The translations under genes and the position numbers were made by a program. A DNA stretch of 64,000 bases from a bacterium (lineage in GTDB: Bacteria > Oederibacteriota > JAAXVQ01 > JAUVAV01). How positions within the stretch are numbered: the first letter of the stretch is position 1; every line of letters begins with the position of its first letter. The notes under the pieces are model-generated. The model did not search any database and was not told the origin of the DNA. It saw only the letters and a list, made by a program, of their open reading frames with translations. Of the stretch, positions 3,955 through 21,485 are shown one piece after another. Location: NCBI GenBank assembly GCA_021108215.1, contig JAIORK010000037.1, positions 20,352 to 84,351 of the forward strand. Reading direction: 5' to 3'.

Positions 3955-4014
3955 ACATAAACTCCTGTTTTTTTTATTTGAAGACAGTTTGCCCGAAAAT
4001 ATTTTCCCGAACAA

Positions 4015-4083
4015 GTAGGGGCACAGCGCGACCGAAGGGAGTCCCGCACGATCCCCCATCCGGTCGGGGCGCCGCGCCCCTAT
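4015..4083. repeat. Composite REP-like element (long imperfect hairpin with a GTAGGGGCAC 5' end)
   Basis: The sequence is gtaggggcacagcgcgaccg-aagggagtcccgcacgatcccccatc-cggtcggggcgccgcgcccctata. The arms pair with a 2-nt bulge. It is intergenic, just downstream of the stop of 4098..5153. A near-identical copy lies at 5183-5252. Confidence 0.7.
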
Positions 4084-4097
4084 ACCCTATAAAATGT

Positions 4098-5153: not shown

Positions 5154-5182
5154 ACTGTATCTCCCTCACGTATTGTATTTTT

Positions 5183-5252
5183 GCAGGGGCACGGCGCGAC
5201 CGAAGGGAGTCCCTCACGATCCCCCATCCGGTCGGGGCGCCGTGCCTCTATA
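5183..5252. repeat. Composite REP-like element, second copy
   Basis: The sequence is gcaggggcacggcgcgaccgaagggagtccctcacgatcccccatccggtcggggcgccgtgcctctata. It occupies the same position relative to the stop of 5259..6371 as the 4015-4083 copy does relative to 4098..5153. Confidence 0.7.
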
Positions 5253-5258
5253 AAATTT

Positions 5259-6371
5259 TTATTCCACAAACCGATCCGAAAAATCCGTCTTGGGATAGTT
5301 CCAGATTTTGAGATTATCAACAATGCCATCATTGCCTTCCCAATGATGACGACTCCAGTCATCCGGCTTAGGATAGGTACCCAAATACAATATTTTATCT
5401 GTCGACCAATTTAATGTAGGCATTCCAGTTTGAGTTACTACTGTTGTACTTATTGCAACACCATTTACAAATAGCTTTAATTTATCATCAGCTGTTGCTC
5501 CTGATCCATCCCAGGTAAGCGCCATATGAAATGGAGTAGATGTACTCCAACCCGGTATACTGCCCGGCGCCATGGTTCTAAAAACATTATTTGTATCATC
5601 ATCACGAACAGTTAAAATCAGGTTGTTTTGCCAATCATTATAATGTATTTGAATTCCCAAAGGCTGTTCAGGATCATTAATTGAATTCATAATTGTATAA
5701 TATAGTAAACATACATTATGACCAACACTACTGCTGCTCCAATTAGGTTGGTACCAAAATTCTATACAACCCTTTGGACCTAATTGAAGATTTTCATATT
5801 GAATATAATTATCTGCAATATTGTGATCCCCTGTACGTTCAGCAGGTTCATATCCATTTCCATATTGTCCGGAAAGATATAAAAGATCCCCAACAATCAT
5901 TCCATTGGGTCCAACTTCACTATTCAACACTTCCGTATCTGACCCCAGCTTATTCCATAACAAAAGACCCGGCACTTCGACAATGATTTCTAAATTACCG
6001 GTGTTGTGCTCCACGCGGATGGTAACAGTCGTGGTGTTATTCTTGGTCACAATGGCCTCGCCCGTGCCGATGTAAATCTCCACGCCGTCCACATCGTACA
6101 ACTGTACCAGAATATCCCAATGCCCCACCTGGATGGGCTCAAATATCACGCTTCCGGAATGATCGGCTATCGTGATCGGCAGTACATGCGTCAACGCGCC
6201 TTTGGTCACCGTCACCTGGCCGGTGGCAATGTTGTCTGCCGCATCCAGGGCAAACATCATCTTCCCCTGGCTAGGCGCAGTACTGGGTGCAATTGGATTG
6301 TTCTGCGAGCAGCTAATAGCAATAAAGGCTGATATTGCTATTACAGTCATGATTGATAGTATTTTTCTCAT
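5259..6371 (-). CDS. Lipoprotein, paralog of 4098..5153, with a divergent LamG-like C-terminal domain
   Basis: The lipobox is ...FIAISCSQ. The N-terminal module SQGKMMFALDAADNIATGQVTVTKGALTHVLPITIADHSGSVIFEPIQVGHWDILVQLYDVDGVEIY is identical to the neighbour's. The C-terminus ends in VDNLKIWNYPKTDFSDRFVE. Confidence 0.6.
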   Translation of the reverse strand: MRKILSIMTVIAISAFIAISCSQNNPIAPSTAPSQGKMMFALDAADNIATGQVTVTKGALTHVLPITIADHSGSVIFEPIQVGHWDILVQLYDVDGVEIYIGTGEAIVTKNNTTTVTIRVEHNTGNLEIIVEVPGLLLWNKLGSDTEVLNSEVGPNGMIVGDLLYLSGQYGNGYEPAERTGDHNIADNYIQYENLQLGPKGCIEFWYQPNWSSSSVGHNVCLLYYTIMNSINDPEQPLGIQIHYNDWQNNLILTVRDDDTNNVFRTMAPGSIPGWSTSTPFHMALTWDGSGATADDKLKLFVNGVAISTTVVTQTGMPTLNWSTDKILYLGTYPKPDDWSRHHWEGNDGIVDNLKIWNYPKTDFSDRFVE

Positions 6372-6675
6372 TTTTTCTCCTTTTGGTTAAGTTGAAATTT
6401 TTATCCAACCCTATTCTGGCGGTTATCCAAACCGCCCTTGCCAAAAACGCACATCACCTCCTTTTACCAAAGTCGGTATTGCTTATTGATTTAGTCTGAT
6501 TTTGGTCAACCATTGCCAAACCGGAAAAATCGTGTTTTGGAATTACATTGCTAAAACGGTATAAATAAAAAACTTAAAAACAGACCTGCTGGATCAATAT
6601 AAGAAAGATAGTTTTGAACAACTGTTTATTACAAAAAAGTTCGTTTTTTTAATAGTAATCCCAAATGTCATCCGC

Positions 6676-7320
6676 TCATATCTTCTTTGCGTGTTTTGCC
6701 ACTTTTTGATCTTTTTGATCCATCTGCAACATAAAATACCTGACCAAATCCGCGCTGCGCTTAGCAGCATCTGCCAGGGTATTGGCATCATAATCCAATG
6801 CTTTGCCTTCAATGGGCATGATGAGCATCGGGCCGATGGTGGCTGCTTTCCCGGCATCAACCGACACTGTAATGGTTGTTTTACTTTCCTTTTCATCTTT
6901 TTTCAAAACCCGGTAAACCGGATGGGCTTTGGCGCTGATCCGGGTTTGTTTTTCATTTGATTTGAATTCAATTGCCAAAACAAACATATAGTCTTCGCCG
7001 GCCAATTCCCTGCTTCCTTTTCCGGCTATTTCCTTTGGCAGTGATGATTTGAGCGTGGTCTCGGCACTTTGTGTTTGATTGGTTTTGTCAAAAGCATACA
7101 GTTTCATATAAATATGCTGCGACAGGATGTTTTGCACTTTTTTCCGTACCTGCTTTTCCGGCATGGCCAGAATCCGAGACGAGAGACTCTTGGGCAGGAC
7201 TTCTTCTGAGGATACCTGTTTGTCCTTGACCCATGTATATCCATTCTTTTTCGCCTCAACACTCGTAATACCCATTAACAATACTGATAAGACCAAACAT
7301 GACAAAAGATGATATTTCAT
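6676..7320 (-). CDS. Secreted protein, function unknown
   Basis: The 214-aa ORF has the signal peptide MKYHLLSCLVLSVLLMGITSVEA and a Lys/Glu-rich mature part. I recognised no motif. Confidence 0.45.
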   Translation of the reverse strand: MKYHLLSCLVLSVLLMGITSVEAKKNGYTWVKDKQVSSEEVLPKSLSSRILAMPEKQVRKKVQNILSQHIYMKLYAFDKTNQTQSAETTLKSSLPKEIAGKGSRELAGEDYMFVLAIEFKSNEKQTRISAKAHPVYRVLKKDEKESKTTITVSVDAGKAATIGPMLIMPIEGKALDYDANTLADAAKRSADLVRYFMLQMDQKDQKVAKHAKKI

Positions 7321-7340
7321 TTTTTCTCCTCCTGAATCTT

Positions 7341-7865
7341 CTAGAATGAATATTTCAACTCAATCAATTTCAATGTTGATAATTCGAGTTTACAGAATTC
7401 TTTCTCCTGCGCCAATAATTCATTGTACTTATGAATGATGCGCATAATGTCGTCTTTCGTGATTCTAAAAAAGAACGCTCCAATAACACCAACAGAAAAA
7501 GGCGCAAGTATCCACGAGGGAGTTCCTTCGTCCGTGTTCGCAGTCGCTATAAAAACAGCAAACCCGACAGCAAACAAACTGTAACTTATCCAAAAAAATA
7601 TATTTTCAACTTCCAGGGCATCTATCATGGGATCTAATTCCTGATATAGTTCCTCATCAAAAGGTCTTACTTGATTAATATATTTCCGCATTTTCCCTAT
7701 TGATCCATTCGGATACATTTCCAGAATACTTAGGGTTTGCATATCAAACAGCTTCACTTCGGTGATTGATATTTCCTCGGTCTCATTTTTTTTCGTTTCT
7801 GCCAAAACCAGCATAGGATTACATATCAAAACTATTCCCACTACAAATACAATAATTCGTTTCAT
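7341..7865 (-). CDS. Small membrane protein, function unknown
   Basis: The 174-aa ORF has an N-terminal signal/anchor MKRIIVFVVGIVLICNPMLVLA and two internal hydrophobic segments (FFWISYSLFAVGFAVFIA and WILAPFSVGVIGAFFF). Confidence 0.45.
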   Translation of the reverse strand: MKRIIVFVVGIVLICNPMLVLAETKKNETEEISITEVKLFDMQTLSILEMYPNGSIGKMRKYINQVRPFDEELYQELDPMIDALEVENIFFWISYSLFAVGFAVFIATANTDEGTPSWILAPFSVGVIGAFFFRITKDDIMRIIHKYNELLAQEKEFCKLELSTLKLIELKYSF

Positions 7866-7875
7866 AGCATGACTC

Positions 7876-8712
7876 CTATTTGATCTTTATGATCCAAACC
7901 ACAGACATGTTAATTGGACGGGTTTCATCCGCCGTACGCGGAGTACCATTAGACCCATCACTACGAGGAACTCCAACTCTGAGATAGCTGACATGTGCAC
8001 TATCTGCCGAAGCAAGCCTATCATTGTAGTATCCTCCAGAACCATGTGTTGGTATTTCGTCTTTCGATCCGGCATATTCCAACTTATGTTTATGCCCCTG
8101 AAAAGCATCTTCTTGTTCCACACCTGATGTTTGACTCCCTCGCAAAAACCTCCCCAGAATATTTAAATTCGGAATGACTACCCCATCCAAAGACCCGCCG
8201 GTTCCTGTCAATGTCTGGCCATTGCATTCTACCCAGCTATCCGGGAGTGTTTGGGGAACATTGGGTAAACTTTTATGCCAAGCCATAATCGTCCCAACCG
8301 GCAAGGTGGCATCAAATGCCATTTTTTGTGCTGTAATCGCGCCGTCCGCCACTGTCATGGCATAGGCTGATGTTCCCAGTTTTTGCCTCAGTGTCATTTC
8401 GGCATTGGTACCGACTTGAATCCCCACCCAGAGAGGTTGATTGAAACTTGACGGGGTCAACGCAGTTAAATTACCTAACACAGTATTGAAATAACCATTG
8501 TTGGTTACCACACTTTGCGCCTCTTCCCAGACCATGGTCCCGCCGCTTTCAGCTGCGTAGAGACGGAATGTGACGGAATACTGACCGTCGACAACTGGTT
8601 GCTGAACACTATCCATCAACCGGCCTTGGTAATTGAGGGTGTTAGGGATGTCGGCGAAAACGCCGGGTGCCATAACAATCACGAGTAGAATAGAAAGATA
8701 TACTTTCTTCAT
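7876..8712 (-). CDS. Secreted tail-fibre-like protein, paralog family member, with a tail-collar-like C-terminal tip
   Basis: After the signal peptide ...APGVFA comes the family N-module DIPNTLNYQGRLMDSVQQPVVDGQYSVTFRLYAAESGGTMVWEEAQSV..GTSAYAMTVADGAIT. The tip reads VGTIMAWHK..PDSWVECNGQ..IPNLN..RFLRG..GHKH..ETRPINMSVVWIIKIK, a collar-like layout. Confidence 0.65.
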   Translation of the reverse strand: MKKVYLSILLVIVMAPGVFADIPNTLNYQGRLMDSVQQPVVDGQYSVTFRLYAAESGGTMVWEEAQSVVTNNGYFNTVLGNLTALTPSSFNQPLWVGIQVGTNAEMTLRQKLGTSAYAMTVADGAITAQKMAFDATLPVGTIMAWHKSLPNVPQTLPDSWVECNGQTLTGTGGSLDGVVIPNLNILGRFLRGSQTSGVEQEDAFQGHKHKLEYAGSKDEIPTHGSGGYYNDRLASADSAHVSYLRVGVPRSDGSNGTPRTADETRPINMSVVWIIKIK

Positions 8713-8818
8713 TTCCTCAAACCTCCTTTAAATTTAATGTGGAGCAAACCTTCACTTATTTTGCAATTCCGAAAAAAAATATCTTGCAAAATTGGAGTAA
8801 CAGCCCAATAATACATGT

Positions 8819-10075
8819 ATGACATATTTACCTCGTTTTTCAGAAAAAAAAATCCAGCAGCTTACCAGGCAATTCGGCGCCATTCTGCTTACCGGCCCGC
8901 GCCAGGCCGGTAAAACCACGCTGTTGACCCACGCAGCCAGACAGCTTTTCAAATCAAACTTCTCAACCTTTTCCTTTGACACACCCAGTGAGATGGATAC
9001 TTTTCGCCGCGATCCTGACCTTTTTTTTCTCAATCATCCCGGAATCCTGCTCCTGGATGAAGTCCAGCATGTTCCTGATATCTTCCCCTATTTAAAAAGT
9101 GAAATTGATAAAACTCCCGGTAAATTCCGTTTTTTTATTACCGGCTCCCAACATTTCGCCCTCATGAAGGGTGTAAGTGAGTCCCTTGCCGGACGGGCGG
9201 CTATATTGGATCTTTGGCCCCTGGCGCAACAAGAACTATACAAATCCAATTTGGAACACACACTTCATTTCCTGGAAAATCCTGCTGCTTTATCCACACT
9301 AAGAAAAAAAGAATTCCCGGTTAATGACAAACAGCATATCGTTCCAGCCATACTTAATGGCGGTTATCCACCTGTAGCTCTAACTGGTTTACCACCTACA
9401 GAGTGGTTTGAATCATATCGCCGCACTTATTTGCAGCGAGATATCCGGCAACTTAGCCAGGTCGGCGACTTAGGCCGATTTGACCGCTTTTTGACCCTTT
9501 GCGCGGGCCGCTCGGGAACCATTTTAAATAAAGCTGAATTCTCCCGTTCACTCTCGATTGACAATAAAACCGTAGATCATTGGCTTTCCCTGCTGGAGAG
9601 CAGTTATCAAATGATCTCCCTGCCGGCCTATCATGCCCATACCACCAAACGCATTACCAAGCGGCCCAAGTGGATTTTCGCAGACAGCGGCCTGGGTCTT
9701 CACCTCCAGGGTATCCGCGACATGTCAGGCCTGCTGTCAGCTCCGCATTTCGGACATCTGTTTGAAGCCTTTGTGACCATGGAGATCCGCAAAATTTTCA
9801 GTCATACCGGCAAACCCTGGAATGCTTTTCATTTCCGCGATGCCGTTGGTTTGGAATGCGATTTGGTGTTGGCAAAAGGCGGCCTCCTGCTTCCCATTGA
9901 AATCAAGCATACCGCCGGACCCACTACCTCCGATCTGGCGCCGCTCCGATGCTTTATGGAACTTTATCCAAAAAACACTCCTTATGGTTTGATGATTTCG
10001 CTTAATCCCAAAGTCGAACAACTCAGTCCCAATATTTTCAACCTGCCTTTGGGCATGATTCTAACAGGTGCCTAA
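8819..10075 (+). CDS. AAA-type ATPase with a DUF4143-like C-terminal domain
   Basis: The 418-aa product has Walker A LLTGPRQAGKTTLL and a Walker B-like ILLLDEVQ. Its overall length and layout match the common AAA_14 plus DUF4143 ATP-binding proteins. Its orientation is opposite to the surrounding array. Confidence 0.65.
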   Translation: MTYLPRFSEKKIQQLTRQFGAILLTGPRQAGKTTLLTHAARQLFKSNFSTFSFDTPSEMDTFRRDPDLFFLNHPGILLLDEVQHVPDIFPYLKSEIDKTPGKFRFFITGSQHFALMKGVSESLAGRAAILDLWPLAQQELYKSNLEHTLHFLENPAALSTLRKKEFPVNDKQHIVPAILNGGYPPVALTGLPPTEWFESYRRTYLQRDIRQLSQVGDLGRFDRFLTLCAGRSGTILNKAEFSRSLSIDNKTVDHWLSLLESSYQMISLPAYHAHTTKRITKRPKWIFADSGLGLHLQGIRDMSGLLSAPHFGHLFEAFVTMEIRKIFSHTGKPWNAFHFRDAVGLECDLVLAKGGLLLPIEIKHTAGPTTSDLAPLRCFMELYPKNTPYGLMISLNPKVEQLSPNIFNLPLGMILTGA

Positions 10076-10076
10076 T

Positions 10077-10181
10077 TCATGGTATCAACCGGCCCTGGTA
10101 GTTGAGGGTGTTGGGTATGTCGGCAAACACACAATTGCAAATACCAATCATCACAATAAACACCAGTTTTTTTCTAAACAT
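10077..10181 (-). pseudogene. 5' fragment of a further tail-fibre-like paralog, truncated after 34 codons
   Basis: The minus strand encodes MFRKKLVFIVMIGICNCVFADIPNTLNYQGRLIP followed by a stop. Homology to the family N-module ends at about 10082, a few nt from the stop of the ATPase gene. Confidence 0.7.
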
Positions 10182-10295
10182 CATTAAGTTCCCCCTGGCT
10201 TGCGGTTTATTATTTTTCCCTTGTCCGCAGTTTGTCATTGCTTTATACTTCAATTAGCAAGACACAAGTTCGCGTCCTTTTTTTAGGAGTATATA

Positions 10296-10670
10296 ATGTC
10301 TGAACCACTAAAACATATATCCATTCCACAACAACAATCCGGCAAACTTTTTCCCACTGATTCTGTTGGTGCTGTTGTCAAAGCAATCATTGATAATTTT
10401 TCACCTAAAAAAATAATCATTTTTGGCTCCTATGCCGCTGAAAAACAAACACCGGAAAGCGATCTTGATTTGTTAATCATCATGGATACCGAACTGCCTC
10501 CACATAAGCGTTCCGTACCTGTGCGTCTGCTTTTCAAACCCATGCCCTGCGTCATGGACTTGCTGATCTATACACCGTCAGAGATTAACTACTGGAACGG
10601 CACAGCCAACCATATCATTACCCATGCCCTCCGCACCGGAAAGGTTCTCTATGCGCAGCCAACACATTGA
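10296..10670 (+). CDS. Minimal nucleotidyltransferase (MNT-type antitoxin-like)
   Basis: It has the IIIFGSYAAEKQTPESDLDLLII motif (GS...DxD) of polymerase-beta-fold nucleotidyltransferases. It overlaps the downstream HEPN gene. Confidence 0.75.
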   Translation: MSEPLKHISIPQQQSGKLFPTDSVGAVVKAIIDNFSPKKIIIFGSYAAEKQTPESDLDLLIIMDTELPPHKRSVPVRLLFKPMPCVMDLLIYTPSEINYWNGTANHIITHALRTGKVLYAQPTH

Positions 10671-11043
10671 ACTGTCCACACAGTGGCTTAAAAAAGCCGG
10701 TCATGATCTTATTACTGCTCATCAAACGCTATTGCTGCCGGACGGACCCACTGATACTGTGGCTTTTCACGCCCAACAAGCAGTAGAAAAATCACTAAAA
10801 GCTTTTCTTACCCTCCGGCAAATTGAATTTCCCAAAAGCCATGAATTGGTACGCCTCCTGGACATGGCTGTTCCGCTCCTTTCTGAACTGGATCAATTCC
10901 GCCAAGCTTGCGCTGAATTGTCAGACTATGCGGTTGAAATCCGCTATCCCACGGAAAGCCTTGAACCTTCCCGCGCAGAGGCTGTTTCCGCCGTCGATAT
11001 GGCGGAGGAAATAGTCAAAACAATTCAGGATCATATGCCATAG
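10651..11043 (+). CDS. HEPN-domain protein (partner of the MNT)
   Basis: AFHAQQAVEKSLKAFLT..EFPKSHELVRLL matches the HEPN (PF05168-like) helix pattern. I chose the start at MRSQHIEL, which overlaps the MNT stop by about 20 nt. The track ORF starts at 10624. Confidence 0.7.
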   Translation: MRSQHIELSTQWLKKAGHDLITAHQTLLLPDGPTDTVAFHAQQAVEKSLKAFLTLRQIEFPKSHELVRLLDMAVPLLSELDQFRQACAELSDYAVEIRYPTESLEPSRAEAVSAVDMAEEIVKTIQDHMP

Positions 11044-11103
11044 TAAAAACACCTGCTACATCTGCAATTATTAAAGGATTTAGTTGTATTTTCAAGTCTC
11101 CGG

Positions 11104-11123
11104 ATTCCCGCTTTCGCGGGAAT
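11104..11123. terminator. Perfect 8-bp hairpin ATTCCCGC-TTTC-GCGGGAAT between convergent genes
   Basis: It lies between the HEPN stop (+ strand) and the stop of 11177..11971 (- strand). It has the ATTCCC-N8-GGGAAT palindrome shape of a widespread REP-like class. No clear U-tract follows on either strand, so a terminator role is uncertain. Confidence 0.3.
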
Positions 11124-11176
11124 GACTGACAATAAATCCCCCGCCCCCCTTTACAAAAAAAAGTGTGTTTATCCTA

Positions 11177-11971
11177 CTATTTTTTCAATTCAACAACTGC
11201 AATAGACAAAGAATCATGTCCATCCATTTTGATAGTCCCGCCACCGCTATATCGAGACCATTGTAGTTTTGCTGTATAGTTGCCAGCAGGAACATTTTCT
11301 ACCACGCAAGTAAAGCCGCCTGCAAAATGCCTTGTTGCCATAAGACTTAGTAAATAGCCCCCCTCAAAGGGACCATAATATTGATTATCAATATTTAGGC
11401 GAAATTTAACGACACCTGAATCACCATCCATCCAGCACGAATAATCCGCATTAACCAAAAGAGGATAACCAGAAGGTAAAATGTCAAATTCAATAACATC
11501 TTCCCACGAGGATGATGTTGTCGATCGACCACTCATAGTTTGTATTTTACAACTCCAATAATCTGTCACTGCTTTTTGCGCCAATTTATCAGTCGTTATC
11601 GCCCCATCAGCCACCGTCATGGCATAGGCCGAAGTGCCCAATTTTTGCCTAGGTGTCATCTCTACATTGATGCCAACCTGGATACCGACCCAGAGGGGTT
11701 TATTGAAAATGGCGGGAGTCAAGGCGGTGGAATTGCCAAGTACAGTATTGAAATAACCATTGTTGGTTACTACACTTTGCGCTTCTTCCCAGACCATGGT
11801 ACCGCCGCTTTCTGCTGTGTAGAGGCGAAAGGCTACAGAATACTGGCCATCCACAACCGGTTGCTGAACACTATCCATCAACCGGCCTTGGTAGTTGAGG
11901 GTGTTTGGGATGTCGGCGGATACTCCTGCGGCAATAACTATTAGTGTTATTGCCAGTAGTATTTTTTTCAT
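11177..11971 (-). CDS. Secreted tail-fibre-like protein, paralog family member, with a beta-rich type-B tip
   Basis: The signal peptide is MKKILLAITLIVIAAGVSA (start trimmed to 11971), followed by the family N-module. The C-terminal ~130 aa is a non-collar domain ending in HDSLSIAVVELKK. Confidence 0.6.
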   Translation of the reverse strand: MKKILLAITLIVIAAGVSADIPNTLNYQGRLMDSVQQPVVDGQYSVAFRLYTAESGGTMVWEEAQSVVTNNGYFNTVLGNSTALTPAIFNKPLWVGIQVGINVEMTPRQKLGTSAYAMTVADGAITTDKLAQKAVTDYWSCKIQTMSGRSTTSSSWEDVIEFDILPSGYPLLVNADYSCWMDGDSGVVKFRLNIDNQYYGPFEGGYLLSLMATRHFAGGFTCVVENVPAGNYTAKLQWSRYSGGGTIKMDGHDSLSIAVVELKK

Positions 11972-11979
11972 CGTCTCCC

Positions 11980-12801
11980 TCATTTCTTTAACTCAAGCAC
12001 TGAAATCGAAATATAATCATTTAATCCCATTGTGACCGTGCCGCTTCCCGTGGTTCTATTACATTGTAAATGAGCAATATACTCCCCTGACGGCACACCT
12101 TCTATCACATATGAGAAACCGCCAGATTTGTATTCAAAAGCCACAGCATATAAATTGGTCCCTGTTTCTGAAGGCGCGTAATAATTATCTCCAATTTTTA
12201 TTCTAAACTTACTTAAACCACCAACATTTCGGCCACATGAGTATTTAGCATCAATCAGTAACTTGCCCCCATCTGGTTTAATATTGAATGAAGCCATTGT
12301 ATGCCATCCCGGTCCATCGGTTGCGACATCAGGATTACTGTCATGATAGTTCCAGCAATTTGTGATCGCATTAACCGCAACTTTACTGCTTGTAATTGCG
12401 CTGTCAGACACTTTGTTTGTAGTAATCGCCCCGTCCGCCACTGTCATAGCATAGGCTGATGTTCCCAATTTCTGTCTCGGTGACAACTCAACATTTGTTC
12501 CAACTTGGACACTTACCCAAAGTGACTGGTTAAATATTGAGGGTGTCAATGCAGTGGAATTGCCAAGCACTGTGTTGAAATATCCGTTTTGTGTCGCTAC
12601 TGGTTGCGCTTCTTCCCACACCATAGTTCCGCCACTTTCCGCTGCATAGAGACGAAAGGTTACTGCGTATTGACCGTCCACAACCGGTTGCTGAACACTA
12701 TCCATCAACCGACCTTGGTAATTTAGGGTGTTGGGGATGTCGGCGAAGGCATGAGTGGTTATGATTATCATCATAAAGCTTAAAAGTATTAATTTTTTCA
12801 T
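11980..12801 (-). CDS. Secreted tail-fibre-like protein, paralog family member, with a type-B tip
   Basis: The start is trimmed to MKKLILLSFMMIIITTHAFA, followed by the N-module. AIT..K fibre repeats are present (ITTNKVSDSAITSSKVAVNAIT). The tip ends in NDYISISVLELKK and is related to the 11177 tip (YSC...KFR..I.NYY...GGF..V.E.VP.G.Y.A.LQ). Confidence 0.6.
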   Translation of the reverse strand: MKKLILLSFMMIIITTHAFADIPNTLNYQGRLMDSVQQPVVDGQYAVTFRLYAAESGGTMVWEEAQPVATQNGYFNTVLGNSTALTPSIFNQSLWVSVQVGTNVELSPRQKLGTSAYAMTVADGAITTNKVSDSAITSSKVAVNAITNCWNYHDSNPDVATDGPGWHTMASFNIKPDGGKLLIDAKYSCGRNVGGLSKFRIKIGDNYYAPSETGTNLYAVAFEYKSGGFSYVIEGVPSGEYIAHLQCNRTTGSGTVTMGLNDYISISVLELKK

Positions 12802-12845
12802 TGTTTCAATCCTCGCCATTAAACTAGAATTTAATAACCAATTAT

Positions 12846-13643
12846 TCAATTTCCAAAAGCCATAACTGATAAATTGCCACGTTGAAACTTCACTGTACTA
12901 TTAGCGGTATAACCATATATTTTAATGTTGTGGCTACCTGCTTCTACTGGATAAGTCGTTATAATGGGTAAAGTAATTAAAAAACCATCATCTTGAGCAT
13001 AGTGGGGCTTCCAAATAGCTTCTGCTTCGGGAATTTGTGCAGAATCAATCTCCAATTTAATATAAAGTGCTATTTCTTTAGTATGATGATAAAGCTGGAC
13101 GGTAGATGATATTAATAATACTGAAGGTGTATCAACAGTAATAGTTGTTTCCAGCAATTCAACGAGTTCGCTAGCTGTCAGATTTATTTCAGATGTTGTT
13201 CCAATTCTTGTCCATCGCGGTTTCAACTTACTCGAAGTAACCTCTCCATCTGCAATTTTTTCTGTAGTAATCGCCCCATCTGCCACAGTCATGGCATAGG
13301 CTGATGTGCCTAACTTCTGCCGAGGCGTCATTTCTGCATTGGTGCCAACTTGGATACCGATCCAGAGGGATTGATTGAATATTGAAGGTGTCAAGGCTGT
13401 AGAATTTCCGAGTACTGTGTTGAAGTAGCCATTTTGTGTCGCTACAGATTGCGCTTCTTCCCAGACCATGGTACCGCCGCTTTCTGCTGTGTAGAGGCGA
13501 AAGGCTACAGAATACTGGCCATCCACAACCGGTTGCTGAACACTATCCATCAACCGACCTTGGTAATTTAGGGTGTTGGGGATGTCGGCGAATGACATGG
13601 CTGGAATTGCCGCCAGAAGCAAACACATTATTATTTTTTTCAT
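12846..13643 (-). CDS. Secreted tail-fibre-like protein, paralog family member, with a divergent type-B tip
   Basis: The start is trimmed to MKKIIMCLLLAAIPAMSFA, followed by the N-module. The tip ends in EAGSHNIKIYGYTANSTVKFQRGNLSVMAFGN. Confidence 0.6.
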   Translation of the reverse strand: MKKIIMCLLLAAIPAMSFADIPNTLNYQGRLMDSVQQPVVDGQYSVAFRLYTAESGGTMVWEEAQSVATQNGYFNTVLGNSTALTPSIFNQSLWIGIQVGTNAEMTPRQKLGTSAYAMTVADGAITTEKIADGEVTSSKLKPRWTRIGTTSEINLTASELVELLETTITVDTPSVLLISSTVQLYHHTKEIALYIKLEIDSAQIPEAEAIWKPHYAQDDGFLITLPIITTYPVEAGSHNIKIYGYTANSTVKFQRGNLSVMAFGN

Positions 13644-13660
13644 TTCACTGCCTCCAGCTT

Positions 13661-14527
13661 TCATTGTTTAATAATGAACATCATTGCTATATTCTTTGGA
13701 CGTGTTTCATTGCCGCCTGTTACCTCGCAACCTTCTGTAAATTCATTCATTCCATACACACCTCTCATTACACTCATTGTTCCGGCTGTTGTTCCATAAA
13801 TTGCTGGTTTTTGTCTGTGATCATGACTTTGTATTTCGAAATCCTGTTTTGTTCCCACAATATCCCCAGTTGCTCCGTCGCCACGTGCAGTCCTTGATGT
13901 TGCATCAGGATCTACTCCTGCACCATGACTCCAGCCTCTTGGAAAATACCCTCTGAAGTCCGGAATATTAAAATCCGTACCTGAACCACCATATGAGTAT
14001 CCTATGGCAGCAAATAAGTGGGGGTACGAAGAAGTGCTTAACCTGTTGCCAGCACATTCCATCCATCCATCCGGCGCTGTCTCCATAGGCCACATCACAA
14101 TCGTACCACTCGGTACAACTCCCCAACCTGAGGCAACTTTGTTAGCTGTAATCGCCCCATCTGCCACTGTCATGGCATAGGCGGAAGTTCCTAGCTTTTG
14201 CCTCGGTGTCATCTCTGCGTTTGTGCCGACCTGGATGCCCACCCAGAGGGGTTGATTAAAAATGGATGGTGTCAAGGCTGTAGAATTTCCGAGTACTGTG
14301 TTGAAGTAGCCGTTTTGTGTTGCTACACTCTGTGCTTCTTCCCAGACCATGGTGCCGCCACTTTCGGCAGCATAGAGACGGAAGGTTACTGAGTATTGAC
14401 CATCTGTAACCGGTTGCTGTGTACTATTCATCAAACGGCCTTGGTAGTTGAGGGTATTGGGGATGGCGGCTTTAATAGAAAAAGGTAAAATAAAAATTAT
14501 TGTAAAAATGAGTAAACAATGTTTCAT
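13661..14527 (-). CDS. Secreted tail-fibre-like protein, paralog family member, with a canonical phage tail-collar domain
   Basis: The N-module is followed by GTIVMWPMETAPDGWMECAGNRLSTSSYPHLFAAIGYSYGGSGTDFNIPDFRGYFPRG..QSHDH..ETRPKNIAMMFIIKQ. This is a close match to the tail-collar consensus (P.GW..C.G..L....Y..LF..IG..YGG.....F..PD.RG). Confidence 0.75.
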   Translation of the reverse strand: MKHCLLIFTIIFILPFSIKAAIPNTLNYQGRLMNSTQQPVTDGQYSVTFRLYAAESGGTMVWEEAQSVATQNGYFNTVLGNSTALTPSIFNQPLWVGIQVGTNAEMTPRQKLGTSAYAMTVADGAITANKVASGWGVVPSGTIVMWPMETAPDGWMECAGNRLSTSSYPHLFAAIGYSYGGSGTDFNIPDFRGYFPRGWSHGAGVDPDATSRTARGDGATGDIVGTKQDFEIQSHDHRQKPAIYGTTAGTMSVMRGVYGMNEFTEGCEVTGGNETRPKNIAMMFIIKQ

Positions 14528-14536
14528 AATTCCACC

Positions 14537-15448
14537 TCAATCCTTTACTTCCATGTCATTACCGCCAAAAGCAATGACTGACAATTCTGCATACACAACT
14601 TTTGCCAGATTATCGTTCCCCTGTGCCCAAACGTAGATAGAAATATTATGTTGGCCTGCTGATACTTCTTGCAATGTCATCATAGGTATCACACTATTAG
14701 GACCATCACCACTTGTTGCATAACCTTCATATTGAAAAAAGACGGGATCTGTTTCTATCCATGTTTCATCCAGTTTAATTTTAAATGATATACCCTGCAA
14801 TGTTTTAGAATGTGTGACAGAACCATAAAATAATATTTGCAGTATAGAATCGCTTTCAACTTCTATCTTCAAATCCAATTCAGGTATGTGCTTATCTCCG
14901 GTATTGCCTGCAATTTCCACGTCCGGTTCAAAGTCAATTGCTTTCTTTGCATAACCTAATTTCATCTTTGATAAAGTAACCGCTTTATCAGCAATATCAT
15001 TTTCTTCAATCCCTCCATCTTTTATCTTGTTTGAAGTAATAGCATTATCTTTAAGCTTATCTGTTGTAATCACATTATCAGCAACCCCTATTGCATACGC
15101 TGCAGTGCCAAGTTGTTGCCTTGGTGTCATTTCTGCACCAGTTTCCATCTGAACACCTATCCATAATGATTGATTGAAATCTCCCATATTCAAACTAGTT
15201 ATATTCCCCAACACTGCATTGAAGTATCCGTTTTTCGTTGTTACGATTTGTGCTTCCTGCCACAAAATATTTCCGGCTACAGGAGTGGTATATAATCGAA
15301 AGGTTACAGAACAATCTTTGTCTGCGACCGGATGGTTTTCATTAACCATCAACCGGCCTTGATAGTTGAGTGTCTTAGGGATGTCGGCATGAGAACTGGT
15401 ATTTATCGTTAGTAATACCATAAAAACAATCATAATTATTTTCTTCAT
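14537..15448 (-). CDS. Secreted tail-fibre-like protein, the most divergent paralog, with a type-B tip
   Basis: The signal peptide is ...INTSSHA and the N-module is diverged (DIPKTLNYQGRLMVNENHPVADKDCSVTFRLYTTPVAGNILWQEAQ). The fibre repeat stretch is extended (ITTDKLKDNAITSNKIKDGGIEENDIADKAVTLSKM). The tip ends in SAGQHNISIYVWAQGNDNLAKVVYAELSVIAFGG. Confidence 0.6.
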   Translation of the reverse strand: MKKIIMIVFMVLLTINTSSHADIPKTLNYQGRLMVNENHPVADKDCSVTFRLYTTPVAGNILWQEAQIVTTKNGYFNAVLGNITSLNMGDFNQSLWIGVQMETGAEMTPRQQLGTAAYAIGVADNVITTDKLKDNAITSNKIKDGGIEENDIADKAVTLSKMKLGYAKKAIDFEPDVEIAGNTGDKHIPELDLKIEVESDSILQILFYGSVTHSKTLQGISFKIKLDETWIETDPVFFQYEGYATSGDGPNSVIPMMTLQEVSAGQHNISIYVWAQGNDNLAKVVYAELSVIAFGGNDMEVKD

Positions 15449-15476
15449 TTCAGCCCTTCCTTTACGTCAATATTTG

Positions 15477-15506
15477 TGTAGGGGCAATTCATGAATTGCC
15501 CCTACA
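15477..15506. repeat. REP-like perfect 30-nt palindrome TGTAGGGGCAATTCA/TGAATTGCCCCTACA
   Basis: Read directly from the sequence. It is intergenic, between the stop of 15508..16335 and the start of 14537..15448, and has a GTAG 5' motif on both strands. Confidence 0.75.
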
Positions 15507-15507
15507 A

Positions 15508-16335
15508 TCATTTTATTTTTATTATCCATACAACTGACATATTAATTGGTCTTGTTTCATCTCCTGCATCCGCGCCCGTCACATTACCAACAGTGGCATT
15601 ATCCGAGTCTATACTATATTTGTCATTTCCACTGTCTGCATCCTTTGAAGAAGACTTTCTTCTTTTAGCAGATGTTGTATGCCCATGTTGTCGAAGTTGG
15701 TCCGCTTGGGGTGTGCCCGAAATATTACTTCCGCGAAGAAATCTTTTCTCACCATTTAGATCTGGAACAATTCCACCGTGATAAGGACTTTCCAAATCGT
15801 CTACTATCTGACCATTACACTCCACAAATTGATTAGGCAAATCAGGTGTAACAGCTAAATATGACTTATGCCAAGCCAAGATTGTTCCTATGGGAATATC
15901 TGCACCAGGTGCAATTTTATCAGCAGTAATTGATCCATTTGCTATTTTCCCAGTTGTAATCCCTCCATCCACCACGGTCATGGCATAGGCTGATGTGCCT
16001 AACTTCTGCCGAGGCGTCATCTCAGCATTATTTCCCACCTGAATGCCTACCCATAGAGGTTGATTGAAAATCGAGGGTGACATGGATGTCACCGCTCCCA
16101 AAGTTGTGTTGAAATATCCGTTTTTCACATTCACAGACTGCGCTTCTTCCCATACCATAGTTCCACCGCTTTCTGCAGCATAGAAACGGAAGGTTACTGC
16201 ATATTGACCGTCGACAGCAGGTTGGTTAGCGCTATTTATCAATCGGCCCTGGTAATTGAGGGTGTTGGGAATGTCGGCAAATGAAACCGATGCTATTGAA
16301 ACTATAATTATGAGTACCGTGATTATTTTTTTCAT
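15508..16335 (-). CDS. Secreted tail-fibre-like protein, paralog family member, with a collar-like tip
   Basis: The N-module is followed by IGTILAWHKSY..PNQFVECNGQ..VPDLNGEKRFLRG..RQHGH..ETRPINMSVVWIIKIK. The C-terminal 16 aa are identical to those of 7876..8712. Confidence 0.65.
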   Translation of the reverse strand: MKKIITVLIIIVSIASVSFADIPNTLNYQGRLINSANQPAVDGQYAVTFRFYAAESGGTMVWEEAQSVNVKNGYFNTTLGAVTSMSPSIFNQPLWVGIQVGNNAEMTPRQKLGTSAYAMTVVDGGITTGKIANGSITADKIAPGADIPIGTILAWHKSYLAVTPDLPNQFVECNGQIVDDLESPYHGGIVPDLNGEKRFLRGSNISGTPQADQLRQHGHTTSAKRRKSSSKDADSGNDKYSIDSDNATVGNVTGADAGDETRPINMSVVWIIKIK

Positions 16336-16387
16336 GTGTCAACCCCCATTGTTTCTTTCTTTTCTCCTGTCATCCCCACCCTTTTGT

Positions 16388-17131
16388 TTATTCTTTCTCG
16401 CAAAACACACAATCAATATAGGGTGGCAAGCTACTCGCATCATCCACTGTATGCGTATGTTGCCCATTGGAGCTGGTTGTACCACTATAGGTATGTCTAT
16501 GGTGATTATCCGCTACACGGTTTCCGCTGCTGTTTTCCCCTTCTGTAACACTATCTTCTTCACTTGTCGTTCCACTATAAGAATGGTTGTGGCTACCGGC
16601 TTCCTGCATAGTATGCGTATGCGTTTCACTCCCGCCTGTAGCACCGTATTCTGAAGCACCTCTTACAAATTTGCCGTCAAATTCTCCCACCCGCTTGTAA
16701 CCAATAGGACAGGTTGCTCCGCGCCATAGGATGATCGCGCCTTGGGGCACAGCATTTTGTCCACCCGCCACGGACATGGCATACGGCGCAGCACCTAACT
16801 TCTGTCGGGGGGTCATTTCGCTCTTATCACTAATCTGAATTGCCATCCATAAAGCCTGGTCGAATAATGCGGGACTTAATGCGCTTGATCCGCCTAAAAC
16901 AGTATTAAAATACCCGTTGCTTGCCGTCACTGTCTGCGCTTCTTCCCATACCATAGTTCCTCCGCTTTCTGCGGTATAGAGACGAAAGGTTACGGAATAA
17001 TTACCTTTCGCTACGGGTTGATGGGCGCTATCCATCAGCCGTCCCTGGTAGTTGAGGGTGTTGGGAATGTCGGCGAAAGCTATTCCGGCTGTCACCCAAA
17101 TCACTGCCAGAATCAATATTGTTTTTTTCAT
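16388..17131 (-). CDS. Secreted tail-fibre-like protein, paralog family member, with a collar-like tip rich in HxH motifs
   Basis: The N-module is followed by GAIILWRGATCPIGYKRVGEFDGKFVRGAS..GGSETHTHTMQEAGSHNHSYSG..NHHRHTYSG..GQHTHTV..LPPYIDCVFCEKE. Confidence 0.6.
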   Translation of the reverse strand: MKKTILILAVIWVTAGIAFADIPNTLNYQGRLMDSAHQPVAKGNYSVTFRLYTAESGGTMVWEEAQTVTASNGYFNTVLGGSSALSPALFDQALWMAIQISDKSEMTPRQKLGAAPYAMSVAGGQNAVPQGAIILWRGATCPIGYKRVGEFDGKFVRGASEYGATGGSETHTHTMQEAGSHNHSYSGTTSEEDSVTEGENSSGNRVADNHHRHTYSGTTSSNGQHTHTVDDASSLPPYIDCVFCEKE

Positions 17132-17213: not shown

Positions 17214-17792
17214 TCATTTGACGACCGCGACTTTAAGAATTTTCCGGCTATTGCCGATCTGCACAACCACCACATATATCCCGCTGCCCACAGTTGAGTG
17301 ATTGGTATTCAATCCCTGCCAGACAACCGACCAGAAATCATCCAAAGGATTGCCGGTATTGGAAGCCAGGGGATCATATTCCTGATCCACCACAGTTTTG
17401 ACAAACTCACCCAGAAGATTATAAATTTTAATCGTGACTCTTTTTCGTTCAGAGCCAACACGAAATTGGATCACGGTTTCTTCGCCTTGAGTGGGATTAA
17501 ACTTGTTGTTCACTGCCCAGGCAATGCGTCCTTCCGGCAGTTTGGCCTTGATATCATCCTGATTAAACACACTAATGGCCTGTAAAAACCCGGAAATCAA
17601 CAAATGAACATCATTGTTCATGGAACCGATAATGGTCTCTCCCAAACTCCCCAGCAGGGTATAGGTTGTATTGGATTGAAGCCCTCCTGCTGAATTGAGA
17701 TGCCGTTCATTGATGCTGTACTCATCATCTGTCATGGCCCATCCTGTTGATGCCAGCAGGCATATCGCTATTACTATAATTATTTTTTTCAT
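17214..17792 (-). CDS. Small secreted protein with a FlgD-Ig/T9SS-type C-terminal domain
   Basis: The start is trimmed to MKKIIIVIAICLLASTGWA. The C-terminus is NPTQGEETVIQFRVGSERKRVTIKIYNLLGEFVKTVV...VVWQGLNTNHSTVGSGIYVVVVQIGNSRKILKVAVVK. This follows the pattern v.i.IYn.lGe.V...WdG.n..G..v.sGiY seen in FlgD-like/T9SS sorting domains. Confidence 0.55.
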   Translation of the reverse strand: MKKIIIVIAICLLASTGWAMTDDEYSINERHLNSAGGLQSNTTYTLLGSLGETIIGSMNNDVHLLISGFLQAISVFNQDDIKAKLPEGRIAWAVNNKFNPTQGEETVIQFRVGSERKRVTIKIYNLLGEFVKTVVDQEYDPLASNTGNPLDDFWSVVWQGLNTNHSTVGSGIYVVVVQIGNSRKILKVAVVK

Positions 17793-17836: not shown

Positions 17837-19141
17837 TCATTCTTCTTTTCCTTTTCCGGGCGTTTCTACAATCGCCCATACTTTATCGTCAATATCCATA
17901 CTCAAACCCTGAACCTCTGCCAAGCTGATGTTCGGATCAACCATTTCTATGATGATCCCGGCAATAGGCGCACCTTTGGCATCCAGCAGTGAACCGGAGT
18001 AGCCTTTTTTGATGCCATGATTACGACCGATATTTAATACAATCTGATTGACCAATCCGCCTTTTCGCCGGACTTCCAGCACCTGCGCCTGCACCCGGGT
18101 TGCATCCTTTTCAGGCTTTGCAGTAACCTGCATGTCTGCAACCATTTCTTCAAGCAGATCCGCCTGGGATTTTTCCGGTTCTGCCGGTTTATCGGATTTT
18201 CCTGTGCTCTTGATAGGTGCCAGGACATATCCCAAACTCACCCGGTGCGCCGAATTGAGCACTTCCACAAAATTGAGCGCATAATTCAGGCTAAAATTTT
18301 GCCATACAACACCCAAACCGGCAGTAATCCCGCCCATATCAACGCCTAATTTGTAACCGCCGCGTACAGCCACCATATCTGCGATAAAAACTTCCAGACC
18401 CACATTACCGTTCCATTTTTCTTCCAAATCATACTGTACATCTCCGGCAAATCTGATATTCACCACCGGATCAGGATCAAATGCATACGACAGTCCGGCC
18501 AGTCCATAAGCAGGCAGAGGATCTGCGGTAGTATCATATTGAATGGGCGTTCCGATGTTTTTCAAAGCCAGACCCACATTGAGATTTTCCGCCAATGGTT
18601 TAATCTCGTAATACACTCCAAGATCACCTGCCAATGCAAATGCCGAATATTCTTCGACCAATGTCGAATAAAGCATCTTCGCACTGACACCGAACGCCAC
18701 TACCTGTCCCATAATCCCAAAGCGCTTGGCTGCGCCCAAAGAGAGGAGCATATCCCTCTGCGCGTTGATATTGCTGATATCGCCATCATAAGTCACCAGC
18801 TCCATCACGCCGGCATCATAATAGAGAAAATGACTCATCATGTTCCAACCATCGCGTAAACGCATATCATAAGAAATGGAACCAAATGCATCTTCCGCCA
18901 ATCCACTGTAATACGTTGCTGCAACACGCGGATGTTTGATGTCGAGCAATGCTGCGGGATTATAGTCATAGGCAGCCGAGCCCTCCCCCAATACAGCTGC
19001 CTGGGCATTTCCCATCCCGGCTGCGCGTACATTGATCTGATTTTTCAGCAGCAATCCCGAACAGGTTGTGGAATCCTGCGCATAGACACTCGAAATTATA
19101 AATATTGCGCCTAGCATGGTCATCACAGTTTTCTTGTTCAT
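17837..19141 (-). CDS. Outer-membrane beta-barrel of FadL/PorV-like type with an extra C-terminal soluble domain
   Basis: It has a signal peptide and the N-terminal motif NVRAAGMGNAQAAVLGEGSAAYDYNPAALL, typical of FadL/PorV-like barrels. Alternating beta pattern extends to about aa 310. A linker rich in K/P/E follows, then a ~100-aa domain (VLEVRRKGGLVNQIVLNIGRNHGIKKGY). Confidence 0.45.
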   Translation of the reverse strand: MNKKTVMTMLGAIFIISSVYAQDSTTCSGLLLKNQINVRAAGMGNAQAAVLGEGSAAYDYNPAALLDIKHPRVAATYYSGLAEDAFGSISYDMRLRDGWNMMSHFLYYDAGVMELVTYDGDISNINAQRDMLLSLGAAKRFGIMGQVVAFGVSAKMLYSTLVEEYSAFALAGDLGVYYEIKPLAENLNVGLALKNIGTPIQYDTTADPLPAYGLAGLSYAFDPDPVVNIRFAGDVQYDLEEKWNGNVGLEVFIADMVAVRGGYKLGVDMGGITAGLGVVWQNFSLNYALNFVEVLNSAHRVSLGYVLAPIKSTGKSDKPAEPEKSQADLLEEMVADMQVTAKPEKDATRVQAQVLEVRRKGGLVNQIVLNIGRNHGIKKGYSGSLLDAKGAPIAGIIIEMVDPNISLAEVQGLSMDIDDKVWAIVETPGKGKEE

Positions 19142-20841: not shown

Positions 20842-21450
20842 TTATTCCCCGACAATAGCACCCATGTTGGCTTCCGAATCCTCACCTACAGCAATATTCA
20901 TGGCTCCTCCATCAACTTCCACATTATTGGTCCATGTACTGCCGACATGGTATCCATCCTTTAAATCAATCGATCCCATCCGCGAGGTGGAATTTTTCCC
21001 CACTGCGACATTCAAGCCTGATTTAATTTCCACTTTGTTGGTGAGCTTACCGGTCACCCGGGAATTTTCAATATTGATTGAACCCATGGAAGCATTGGAG
21101 CCTTCCCCCACAGCGACATTCAGCCCTTCCTTAACATTGACATTGTTATTAAGCTGACCGGACACTTTGGCGCCCTTAAGACTGATCGAACCCATAGAAG
21201 CGGTGGAATTTTCCCCAACCGCCACATTGAGTGCCTGTTTCGAAAGTGTCACTTTGTTGGTCACATCCCCGCCTGCTGTAGACACACCATTTTTCATACG
21301 AATCGTGCCCATGTCCGCTTTGCTGCCTTTTTTTACCGCAATATTTGTCGAACCATCTACTTTTACGTCATTGGTAATATCTGCATGAACTAATCCGCTG
21401 CTGGAAATCACCAGAATGGCTGCCACCGCATAAATTATTTTTTTCATCAT
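20842..21450 (-). CDS. Secreted repeat protein (minor fibre subunit candidate) with 5-6 curlin-like Asn/Gly/Ser repeats
   Basis: The signal peptide is MMKKIIYAVAAILVISSSGLVHA. A ~33-36-aa unit recurs: LNVAVGENSTASMGSISLKG / LNVAVGEGSNASMGSINIEN / LNVAVGKNSTSRMGSIDLKD / MNIAVGEDSEANMGAIVGE. Confidence 0.6.
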   Translation of the reverse strand: MMKKIIYAVAAILVISSSGLVHADITNDVKVDGSTNIAVKKGSKADMGTIRMKNGVSTAGGDVTNKVTLSKQALNVAVGENSTASMGSISLKGAKVSGQLNNNVNVKEGLNVAVGEGSNASMGSINIENSRVTGKLTNKVEIKSGLNVAVGKNSTSRMGSIDLKDGYHVGSTWTNNVEVDGGAMNIAVGEDSEANMGAIVGE

Positions 21451-21485
21451 TCATTCCCCTTTCATTTTTTGTTTGCTCAAGCAGT

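Follow-up and report, generated by a model that had tools for sequence, protein, structure and literature searches.

Eight tandem genes for probable miniature MAT-like fibre proteins with a conserved base and variable tips on the chromosome of an uncultured bacterium

The closest described counterparts of the genes treated here are the mosaic adhesive trimer (MAT) proteins of Bdellovibrio, 21 of which are known from B. bacteriovorus HD100 (Caulton et al., 2024; PMC10769870). Several MATs of Bdellovibrio were shown on the surface of the predator, one binds Proteus-type glycans, and the tips of Bd2439 and Bd2734 are TNF-like (PMC10769870). Members of 417-1915 amino acids (aa) have been listed from Oligoflexia, the PVC group, Alpha- and Deltaproteobacteria, the FCB group and Omnitrophica, those outside Bdellovibrio being entered under "predator-associated lifestyles" (Supplementary Table S3 in PMC10769870). 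In the present study a 64-kb stretch of DNA from an uncultured candidate-phylum bacterium (positions 20,352 to 84,351 of contig JAIORK010000037.1; hereafter the window) was analyzed, in which eight tandem genes at 7876-17131 probably represent a repertoire of eight miniature members of a MAT-like superfamily. The paralogs are named by their lower window coordinate (7876 to 16388), and the conserved N-terminal domain of their products is called the N-module.

Three other systems serve as points of reference. In the short tail fibre protein gp12 of phage T4 a pair of histidines (HxH) coordinates metal on the trimer axis. Fibre cassettes of phages and tailocins (R-pyocin, P2-type, Tfa) combine a constant proximal with a swappable distal part. 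The type IX secretion system (T9SS) includes the attachment pairs PorQ-PorZ and PorV-PorU of Porphyromonas gingivalis, and it is by such a pairing of a PorV/PorQ-family barrel with a protein bearing a C-terminal sorting domain (CTD) that certain CTD proteins remain attached to the surface.

The window proteins resemble the Bdellovibrio MATs in that a Sec signal peptide is followed by a conserved beta-rich N-terminal domain, a phage-like fibre and a variable tip, in that paralogs are many, in that the tips include apparent TNF-like and phage-derived folds, and in that the genes lie outside prophages. Moreover, the N-module has significant sequence homology to NF053851, and the N-domain is without a structural relative in PDB in both cases (PMC10769870; this study). 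However, the match to NF053851 stays below the cut-off and covers about half the profile, and the window proteins comprise 247-303 aa as opposed to 417-1959 aa, with a shaft of 0-3 repeats instead of hundreds of residues and without an S74 chaperone. Their genes form a tight tandem array, whereas the MAT genes of Bdellovibrio are mostly dispersed; a gp12-type collar tip is absent from the tips listed for characterised Bdellovibrio MATs; and the host is an uncultured candidate-phylum bacterium with T9SS components.

With gp12 and the Pfam family Collar (PF07484) the tip of 13661 shares about 150 alignable residues including the HxH pair, and three further tips are of collar type. Unlike gp12, the window proteins bear a signal peptide and a non-phage N-module instead of a baseplate attachment, have no long shaft, and are encoded on a chromosome with no virion genes nearby. 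The division into a constant proximal and a swappable distal part is common to the window proteins and the phage or tailocin cassettes, as is a small gene beside the fibre at many loci, but here there is no particle for attachment, and the small partner is predicted to be exported and carries a T9SS sorting domain rather than being a cytoplasmic chaperone of Tfa type. As to the T9SS pairs, a PorV/PorQ-family barrel adjoins a small CTD-bearing protein in the window, a likeness which may be taken as a lead; however, the fibres themselves are without a CTD and the barrel is not conserved at related loci.

Layout of the array

Eight intact open reading frames (ORFs) on the minus strand and one 5' fragment had been reported in the initial annotation, and they were recovered here at the same positions. 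A tblastn search of the window with one N-module returned eight full copies (60-100% identity, E 6e-43 to 2e-72) and an additional 14-residue remnant at 10083-10124, with no other comparable match. The array is not an assembly artefact, because it was found in two independently assembled metagenome contigs. A common layout is displayed by all eight paralogs, namely a predicted Sec signal peptide, the N-module of 106 aa, 0-3 shaft repeats of ten residues each and a variable tip, and the mature proteins would comprise about 230-280 residues (about 25-30 kDa). From the upstream to the downstream end, the features are as follows.

16388..17131, minus strand: paralog 1, 247 aa; signal peptide and N-module, no shaft repeats; short, collar-like, His-rich tip with four HxH motifs (THTH, SHNH, HRH, THTH); NF053851 E 2.7e-10, PHROG 5795 'tail protein' E 7e-10; close tip homologues P0016, P0114 and P0048
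15508..16335, minus strand: paralog 2, 275 aa; signal peptide, N-module, two shaft repeats; collar-type tip with QHGH motif and terminal ETRPINMSVVWIIKIK; NF053851 E 8.6e-9, PHROG 523 'tail collar fiber protein' E 7e-11
14537..15448, minus strand: paralog 3, 303 aa; most divergent N-module of the eight (55-63% identity to the others); three shaft repeats, shaft matching PHROG 892 'tail fiber protein' (E 5.8e-10); beta-rich tip of class b2, ending in SVIAFGG
13661..14527, minus strand: paralog 4, 288 aa; signal peptide, N-module, one shaft repeat; gp12/collar tip with SHDH
12846..13664, minus strand: paralog 5, ORF of 272 aa, 265 aa from a likely MKK start, as called in an independent assembly; two shaft repeats; beta-rich tip of class b2, ending in SVMAFGN
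11980..12849, minus strand: paralog 6, ORF of 289 aa from TTG, 273 aa from a likely MKK start; two to three shaft repeats; tip of class b1, ending in SVLELKK; protein identical to representative P0002 (273 aa)
11177..11983, minus strand: paralog 7, ORF of 268 aa, 264 aa from a likely MKK start; one shaft repeat; tip of class b1
10077..10184, minus strand: remnant of a ninth paralog, ORF of 35 codons with signal peptide and the first 14 residues of the N-module, then a stop
7876..8712, minus strand: paralog 8, 278 aa; one shaft repeat; collar-type tip with GHKH motif; weak Pfam Collar match (17.1 bits), PHROG 523/1800 E 1e-10

The signal peptide claimed for every copy was found in all eight, with 16-20 residues consisting of MKK, a hydrophobic core and a small-x-A motif directly before (D/A)IP, so that the -3/-1 rule is obeyed. 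It had been considered that such peptides could be artefacts of wrong start choice. The long N-termini of ORFs 11177, 11980 and 12846 are indeed due to upstream alternative start codons, yet independent assemblies call the MKK starts, and with these the signal peptides hold. The repeats described as AIT..K proved real as well; they are of the type AITTxKI, keep an exact period of ten residues and occur in 0-3 copies per gene.

The remnant ORF encodes the signal peptide and ADIPNTLNYQGRLI before its stop, and lies directly against the 3' end of a DUF4143 ATPase gene on the plus strand. In a related organism (locus L019; loci used for comparison carry such labels) an intact copy of 286 aa occupies the syntenic slot between a HEPN/NTase pair and a DUF4143 gene; therefore, most of the ninth paralog was lost from the window. 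A perfect 13-bp inverted repeat (TGTAGGGGCAATT CATG AATTGCCCCTACA) was noticed at 15477-15506, within the 59-bp gap between 15508 and 14537, whose role might be that of a terminator, of a hairpin for RNA processing or of a site bound by protein. Scans for promoters and terminators gave counts not above those of shuffled sequence.

The base, the tips and their exchange

No Pfam model covers the N-module in a scan of the eight proteins. All eight matched the NCBIfam model NF053851 (Bdello_MAT_N, 'mosaic adhesive trimer family chimeric fiber protein') with E 1.4e-7 to 2.7e-10. The match is independent of the signal peptide, because 62 of 66 diverse modules freed of it still hit the model (best E 5e-12), which was the sole recurring family among them; one member matched choice_anch_R as well. 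Judged by sequence, the N-module is probably a distant homologue of the MAT N-domain of Bdellovibrio. Whether it might turn out to be a known domain had been raised in the initial annotation, and this applies in part, the similarity to NF053851 being significant, though below the curated cut-off. The isolated N-module was modelled as a beta-sandwich (predicted local distance difference test, pLDDT, 89.7), but no fold could be assigned because Foldseek gave generic beta-sandwich matches only (best E 0.028 in PDB and 1.4e-3 in BFVD; template modelling (TM) score <= 0.56). Sequence searches of PDB with the N-module profile and with 16388, 15508 and 14537 yielded no usable match, and among viral data neither a significant match in BFVD nor, by a narrow scan, a relative in IMG/VR was obtained.

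The spread of the N-module proved to be large. An exhaustive search of 1.84 billion cluster representatives with a profile built from the eight N-modules gave 35,569 matches at E <= 1e-3, of which 14,887 reached E <= 1e-10. In the 150 best of these the module is almost always located at residues ~20-125, beginning at about residue 20-25 just after the signal peptide, in proteins of 112 to 3,354 aa. Around 20 representatives are close short relatives (219-347 aa) with the layout of the window proteins and wide-ranging tips, and the last 140 residues of 82 short members fell into 26 BLAST clusters. An earlier protein word-index search with a single N-module of 115 aa had found one partial match, and a search with the 66-sequence alignment returned short fragments named 'hypothetical protein' from Ignavibacterium, Saprospiraceae and Patescibacteria. 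Scans of metagenomes and of GTDB genomes, run with narrow search patterns and giving seven loci each, revealed relatives in Omnitrophota, Calditrichia, Desulfosarcina and unclassified metagenome-assembled genomes. Locus L003 contains two tandem members of 535 and 554 aa which end in an SDxxxK S74-type chaperone and thus exhibit canonical MAT architecture. Comparable arrays exist in other uncultured organisms, with at least five copies in L017 and three in L020.

Among the tips, that of 13661 is the clearest collar tip, as had been claimed. It reached 78.7 bits (E 3.2e-22) against PF07484, for which the gathering threshold is 24 bits, and it alone passed; 7876 stayed below with 17.1 bits, and 15508 and 16388 were without a Pfam match. 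Over the ~150 residues mentioned above it is homologous to the receptor-binding region of gp12 and matches short-tail-fibre structures in PDB (9cuy_c, E 1.5e-15; T4 gp12 1ocy, E 1.4e-13), its SHDH aligning with YHKH of gp12 and the C-terminal strand ETRPKNI..IIK being conserved, and it also matches PHROG 523 (E 5.7e-34). The tips of 7876, 15508 and 13661 are homologous over their full length (blastp E ~1e-7), with identities of 43-45% between 15508 and 7876 and 25% between 15508 and 13661, while the shorter tip of 16388 is linked to the other collar-type tips via intermediate sequences only. The tips of 7876, 15508 and 16388 all match tail-collar or tail families of PHROG, and four tips in all are collar-like with HxH motifs.

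The beta-rich tips form two pairs at the level of BLAST, 11177/11980 (b1, ending in ELKK, 41% identity between the tips) and 12846/14537 (b2, ending in AFG), the relation of b1 to b2 being weak (hhalign probability 46%). The proposal of two unrelated tip classes is hence roughly right as far as four collar-type and four beta-rich tips are concerned, but by sequence there are three groups. Of the beta-rich tips that of 11177 was modelled. In the AlphaFold2 monomer model (mean pLDDT 87) the N-module exceeds 90 and the tip reaches ~95; the linker is poorly defined, which a trimeric shaft modelled as a monomer would lead one to expect. Foldseek related this tip to the C-terminal domain of chlamydial Pgp3 (4jdn_B, TM 0.64, root-mean-square deviation 2.8 Å), to the TNF-like Photorhabdus lectin PLTL (9ib7_C, TM 0.57) and to the spike knob of phage phi812 (9eul). 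For TNF-like domains the probability was 1.0 and E ranged from 6e-5 to 5e-4, but TM on the target was just 0.57-0.64, so that the model is suggestive of a TNF-like jelly-roll beta-sandwich without being conclusive.

Base and tips have followed different histories. In the five closest paralogs the N-modules share 87-92% identity as proteins but 79-87% as DNA, and their codons differ by 28-51 synonymous against 8-14 non-synonymous changes. By these counts the divergence of the N-modules is old and under strong purifying selection. Gene conversion as a source of their similarity was rejected, because synonymous differences are abundant. The N-modules of 7876 and 11177 are 92% identical and their tips unrelated; conversely, 7876 and 15508 share a tip type with N-modules just 80% identical, and 12846 and 14537 do so with N-modules just 63% identical.

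A contig of a second strain (L001) matches the window at 99.75% identity across 14.5 kb, with zero mismatches in the seven genes at 11177-17131. In its copy of 7876, however, the first 200 residues are identical, followed by an unrelated segment of ~60 residues (201-262) and then by the conserved C-terminal strand; therefore, the exchange of tip segments is ongoing between strains. The stretches variable between the two contigs are 7334-8111 and 2715-6726. L001 is without the gene of a 174-aa membrane protein (7341-7865), two genes of LamG lipoproteins and a putative barrel of 432 aa, and these absences together with the different segment in 7876 imply that the downstream end of the array is strain-variable. 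An IS200-like Y1 transposase gene (1994-2626, minus strand) is situated at the edge of the strain-variable segment. As to a diversity-generating retroelement, no match to a reverse transcriptase family was present among the scanned ORFs, smaller ORFs not having been checked. On account of the incongruent similarities of N-modules and tips and of the replacement between near-identical strains, the sequences show a diversity that would have arisen by duplication and exchange of tip segments, the base being kept constant.

A candidate partner and the surrounding genes

The neighbourhood of the array contains the following features.

17214..17792, minus strand: candidate partner, 192 aa; signal peptide, motif of ~47 aa, divergent T9SS-type CTD; directly upstream of the array
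17837..19141, minus strand: PorV/PorQ-family outer-membrane beta-barrel (NF033709 PorV_fam, 116 bits against a cut-off of 90)
23810-24469: extracytoplasmic function (ECF) sigma gene, at the upstream end of a repeat-protein locus
8819-10075, plus strand: DUF4143/AAA_14 ATPase (Pfam match), inside the array
10296-10670 and 10624-11043, plus strand: NTase/HEPN pair (MNT-HEPN toxin-antitoxin-like; Pfam matches), inside the array

The motif of the candidate partner (..N.GGG..S..Y.L.G..G....G.....Y.L.SGF) is rich in Gly, Ser and Tyr. Its CTD scored 23.5 bits against Por_Secre_tail, below the cut-off of 27, whereas the CTDs of the partners in L003, L005 and L010 exceed the Pfam cut-off with 33-47 bits. 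Homologues adjoin MAT-like genes in L003, L005, L010, L012, L014, L020/L021 and L022 and lie within 5 kb of them in L006. Those in L003, L005, L006, L010, L014 and L020/L021 begin with a signal peptide and end in a T9SS CTD, with the motif ..GGG..S..Y......GQ...G..S...Y....GFW in between. A hidden Markov model of the 47-column motif, run against six-frame ORFs of the 272 kb fetched, recovered solely the known partners and one protein in L012 that had not entered the model (E 1.1e-7). This protein of ~100 aa (1320-1622) directly follows the fibre gene in a high-GC organism and is without a T9SS CTD; therefore, the motif and not the CTD is the conserved element beside fibre genes. Loci L022-L028 were sampled blind to their neighbours; in L022 a partner with CTD was detected directly downstream (E 1.2e-15), while at L004, L015-L018, L023/L024, L025, L026 and L027/L028 none was found. 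Altogether, the partner occurs at about half of those distinct loci whose flanks were usable, a recurrence far above expectation for one small family, yet not universal. An assignment to PamT, a pilus tip protein of the candidate phyla radiation, was discarded, the NCBIfam match (E 0.064) being judged noise after a check against the paper.

Judging from sequence and position, the candidate partner may be the anchor of the fibres, and a single partner gene ahead of eight fibres with constrained N-modules would be consistent with a dock common to all; the data agree just as well with a role in assembly. We put forward, tentatively and as a possibility that we would not count on, that the partner is the envelope element on which the MAT-type N-domain docks, composed of a signal peptide, the ~47-aa motif and a variable anchor (a T9SS CTD in lineages with a T9SS, none in a high-GC lineage), and that in the window it would be exported by the T9SS, possibly held by the PorV/PorQ barrel, and present the eight fibres, which might cross the outer membrane piggy-backed on it.

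The barrel beside the partner had simply been called an outer-membrane barrel. This label is corrected here to a T9SS protein of the PorV/PorQ family; its C-terminal extension of ~120 residues is matched by no model. Since it is not a conserved feature of related loci, it is uncertain whether it belongs to the system. No homologue of it was found within 10 kb at other loci; the 174-aa and 214-aa downstream proteins and the 432-aa barrel likewise have no homologue at other MAT-like loci, and none of these is counted as a part of the system. The LamG lipoproteins are not counted either, though one homologue exists in L017. They are encoded in tandem at 4098-5153 and 5259-6371 (both minus strand), are near-identical at residues ~21-145 and share the last 19 residues, but diverge in a C-terminal Laminin_G_3 (concanavalin-like) domain; a 45%-identical homologue follows the L017 array. 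By sequence they look like a second case in the window of a constant N-terminus joined to a variable binding domain. The DUF4143 and NTase/HEPN genes are probably passengers outside the fibre system. The same gene types occur in or beside related arrays, with three DUF4143 genes in L017 (4211-8054) and both types in L019 (394-3581).

Farther upstream, the repeat-protein locus at 20842-23813 (minus strand) encodes a 775-aa protein with ~10 near-identical repeats of 36 aa (108 bp; GKNVKANQGAANIEKSKIKGTVINTSAGATVTNVGI) and a 202-aa protein with related repeats, followed downstream by a 136-aa protein and a 382-aa lipoprotein. None of its proteins matched Pfam, NCBIfam or PHROG, and the locus may produce a beta-helical or amyloid-like surface fibre. 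The label 'CsgG-like' given to it previously is unsupported in the light of these scans, and there is no support for its linkage to the array as a conserved feature, the small CTD protein alone recurring at related loci.

The window as a whole is chromosomal and contains genes for elongation factor G (EF-G), PhoH, an aminotransferase, a Na/Pi transporter, two-component and sigma-54 regulators, glycosyltransferases and a GGDEF protein. The closest named relative of its EF-G is from candidate division FCPU426 (69% identity), with other bacterial EF-Gs at 77-78%, and the organism can probably be placed in or close to this uncultured phylum. A low-GC segment (46000-60000; 35-38% against 42-48% elsewhere) comprises a methyltransferase, two group-1 glycosyltransferases and proteins of 819 and 2264 aa, neither with a Pfam match. 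Phage structural genes (capsid, sheath, tube, baseplate, terminase, lysis) were absent from ~55 ORFs of the 64 kb scanned with Pfam, NCBIfam and PHROG, in agreement with the statement that the array lies outside any phage. At L020 a Phage_base_V protein (gpV/VgrG spike) of 267 aa is encoded at 4159-4962, 1.3 kb upstream of the partner gene and the three-copy array; no other particle genes were seen on this 10-kb contig.

Interpretation and significance

The locus is probably, in our estimation, a repertoire of eight miniature MAT-like proteins, for which the following course can be proposed. Sec would carry each protein into the periplasm, with cleavage after the A-x-A site; the corresponding sequence features are present. 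The N-module would be a common base by which every paralog docks to one cell-envelope element, as suggested by its position, its homology to the MAT N-domain and the strong purifying selection across paralogs. The short shaft of phage-fibre repeats and the tip would trimerise, since known structures show both the gp12 collar with its HxH site and the TNF-like jelly roll as obligate trimers. To judge from gp12, Bd2439 and TNF-like lectins, the C-terminal tip would recognise a ligand displayed by another cell or surface, for which a glycan or an epitope of lipopolysaccharide type is most likely. With tips diversified by duplication and segment exchange on the constant base, several binding specificities would be united on one display platform, the purpose of which could be attachment to prey or host cells, to partner cells or to particulate substrates. 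The initial annotation had correctly described the architecture, in which a conserved anchor is combined with exchangeable tips of receptor-binding type and every paralog has its own Sec signal, and the surface recognition repertoire proposed there is the reading which the sequences favour most.

Several points weigh against such an interpretation. The scores against NF053851 amount to 31-41 bits, with a curated cut-off of 60, and extend over profile positions ~3-86 of 162 only, so that membership in the family as defined on Bdellovibrio would not be established by the curators' standard. The 247-303 aa of the window proteins leave almost no shaft, and the length of published MATs (417-1959 aa) is thought to be needed to reach the prey. 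The fibre proteins bear a Sec signal only, with no T9SS CTD, autotransporter or lipobox, and none of the eight matched Por_Secre_tail or CHU_C. Trimerisation, crossing of the outer membrane and surface display are predictions by analogy.

The small size and the almost missing shaft would also suit freely secreted soluble lectins or bacteriocin-like targeting proteins, in which the N-module serves stability or secretion and which act away from the producer. The proteins themselves contain no anchor motif, and the TNF-like neighbours PLTL and Pgp3 are soluble secreted proteins. We regard this as unlikely, for no copy includes a toxic or enzymatic domain, the purifying selection on the N-module across varied tips is better explained by a common docking partner, and the homologous N-domain of Bdellovibrio belongs to fibres displayed on the surface by experiment (PMC10769870). 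The position of the array invites another explanation, according to which its products are accessory subunits, for example an alternative tip or cap, of the upstream ensemble of ECF-sigma-controlled repeat-protein locus, PorV/PorQ-like barrel and CTD protein. From the ECF sigma gene to the array all lies on one strand with short gaps, the barrel is of the PorV/PorQ family, and the gene order is kept in the second strain. But repeat-protein genes, 382-aa lipoprotein and barrel are without homologues beside MAT-like genes at the other loci examined, where only the small CTD protein recurs; the N-module is shared by tens of thousands of proteins whose contexts differ widely; and the arrays of L017 and L020 suggest a function without a repeat-protein locus, which renders this explanation very unlikely.

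That the array is the fibre cassette of a decayed prophage, tailocin or contractile injection system was considered in view of the tips and shaft repeats, which match phage tail-fibre families, the Phage_base_V gene near the L020 array, and the mobile or defence-type genes nearby (IS200-like transposase, HEPN/NTase, DUF4143). However, a Sec signal peptide, absent from phage fibres, is present in all eight copies, the particle genes listed above were not found in the 64 kb, neither BFVD nor IMG/VR gave a significant match to the N-module, and the genes are intact and under purifying selection. A phage remnant is therefore largely refuted and extremely improbable.

The preferred interpretation as miniature MAT-like fibres places the locus in a known kind. 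The initial annotation had called the function of the repertoire unknown; the kind of system is not, as MAT fibres were published in 2024 and the N-module matches NF053851. New are the miniature size, the tandem array, the purifying selection, the tip swap between strains and the candidate partner.

With 35,569 representatives sharing the N-module, the platform would reach far beyond the prey recognition by Bdellovibrio for which MAT fibres have mainly been described, and the design of a constant base with a swappable phage-derived tip appears across uncultured bacteria, very small arrayed forms included. The near-identical strains with a swapped tip segment point to diversification on short timescales, and the minimal proteins of base and tip would be convenient for structural and binding studies. 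Furthermore, the recurrent CTD neighbour offers a concrete candidate for what the N-domain binds on the surface of the producer, a question left by Caulton et al. (PMC10769870). If the partner indeed acts as the dock, this would amount to a general display mechanism for MAT-like fibres and would explain why the constraint on the N-module is far stronger than that on the tips.

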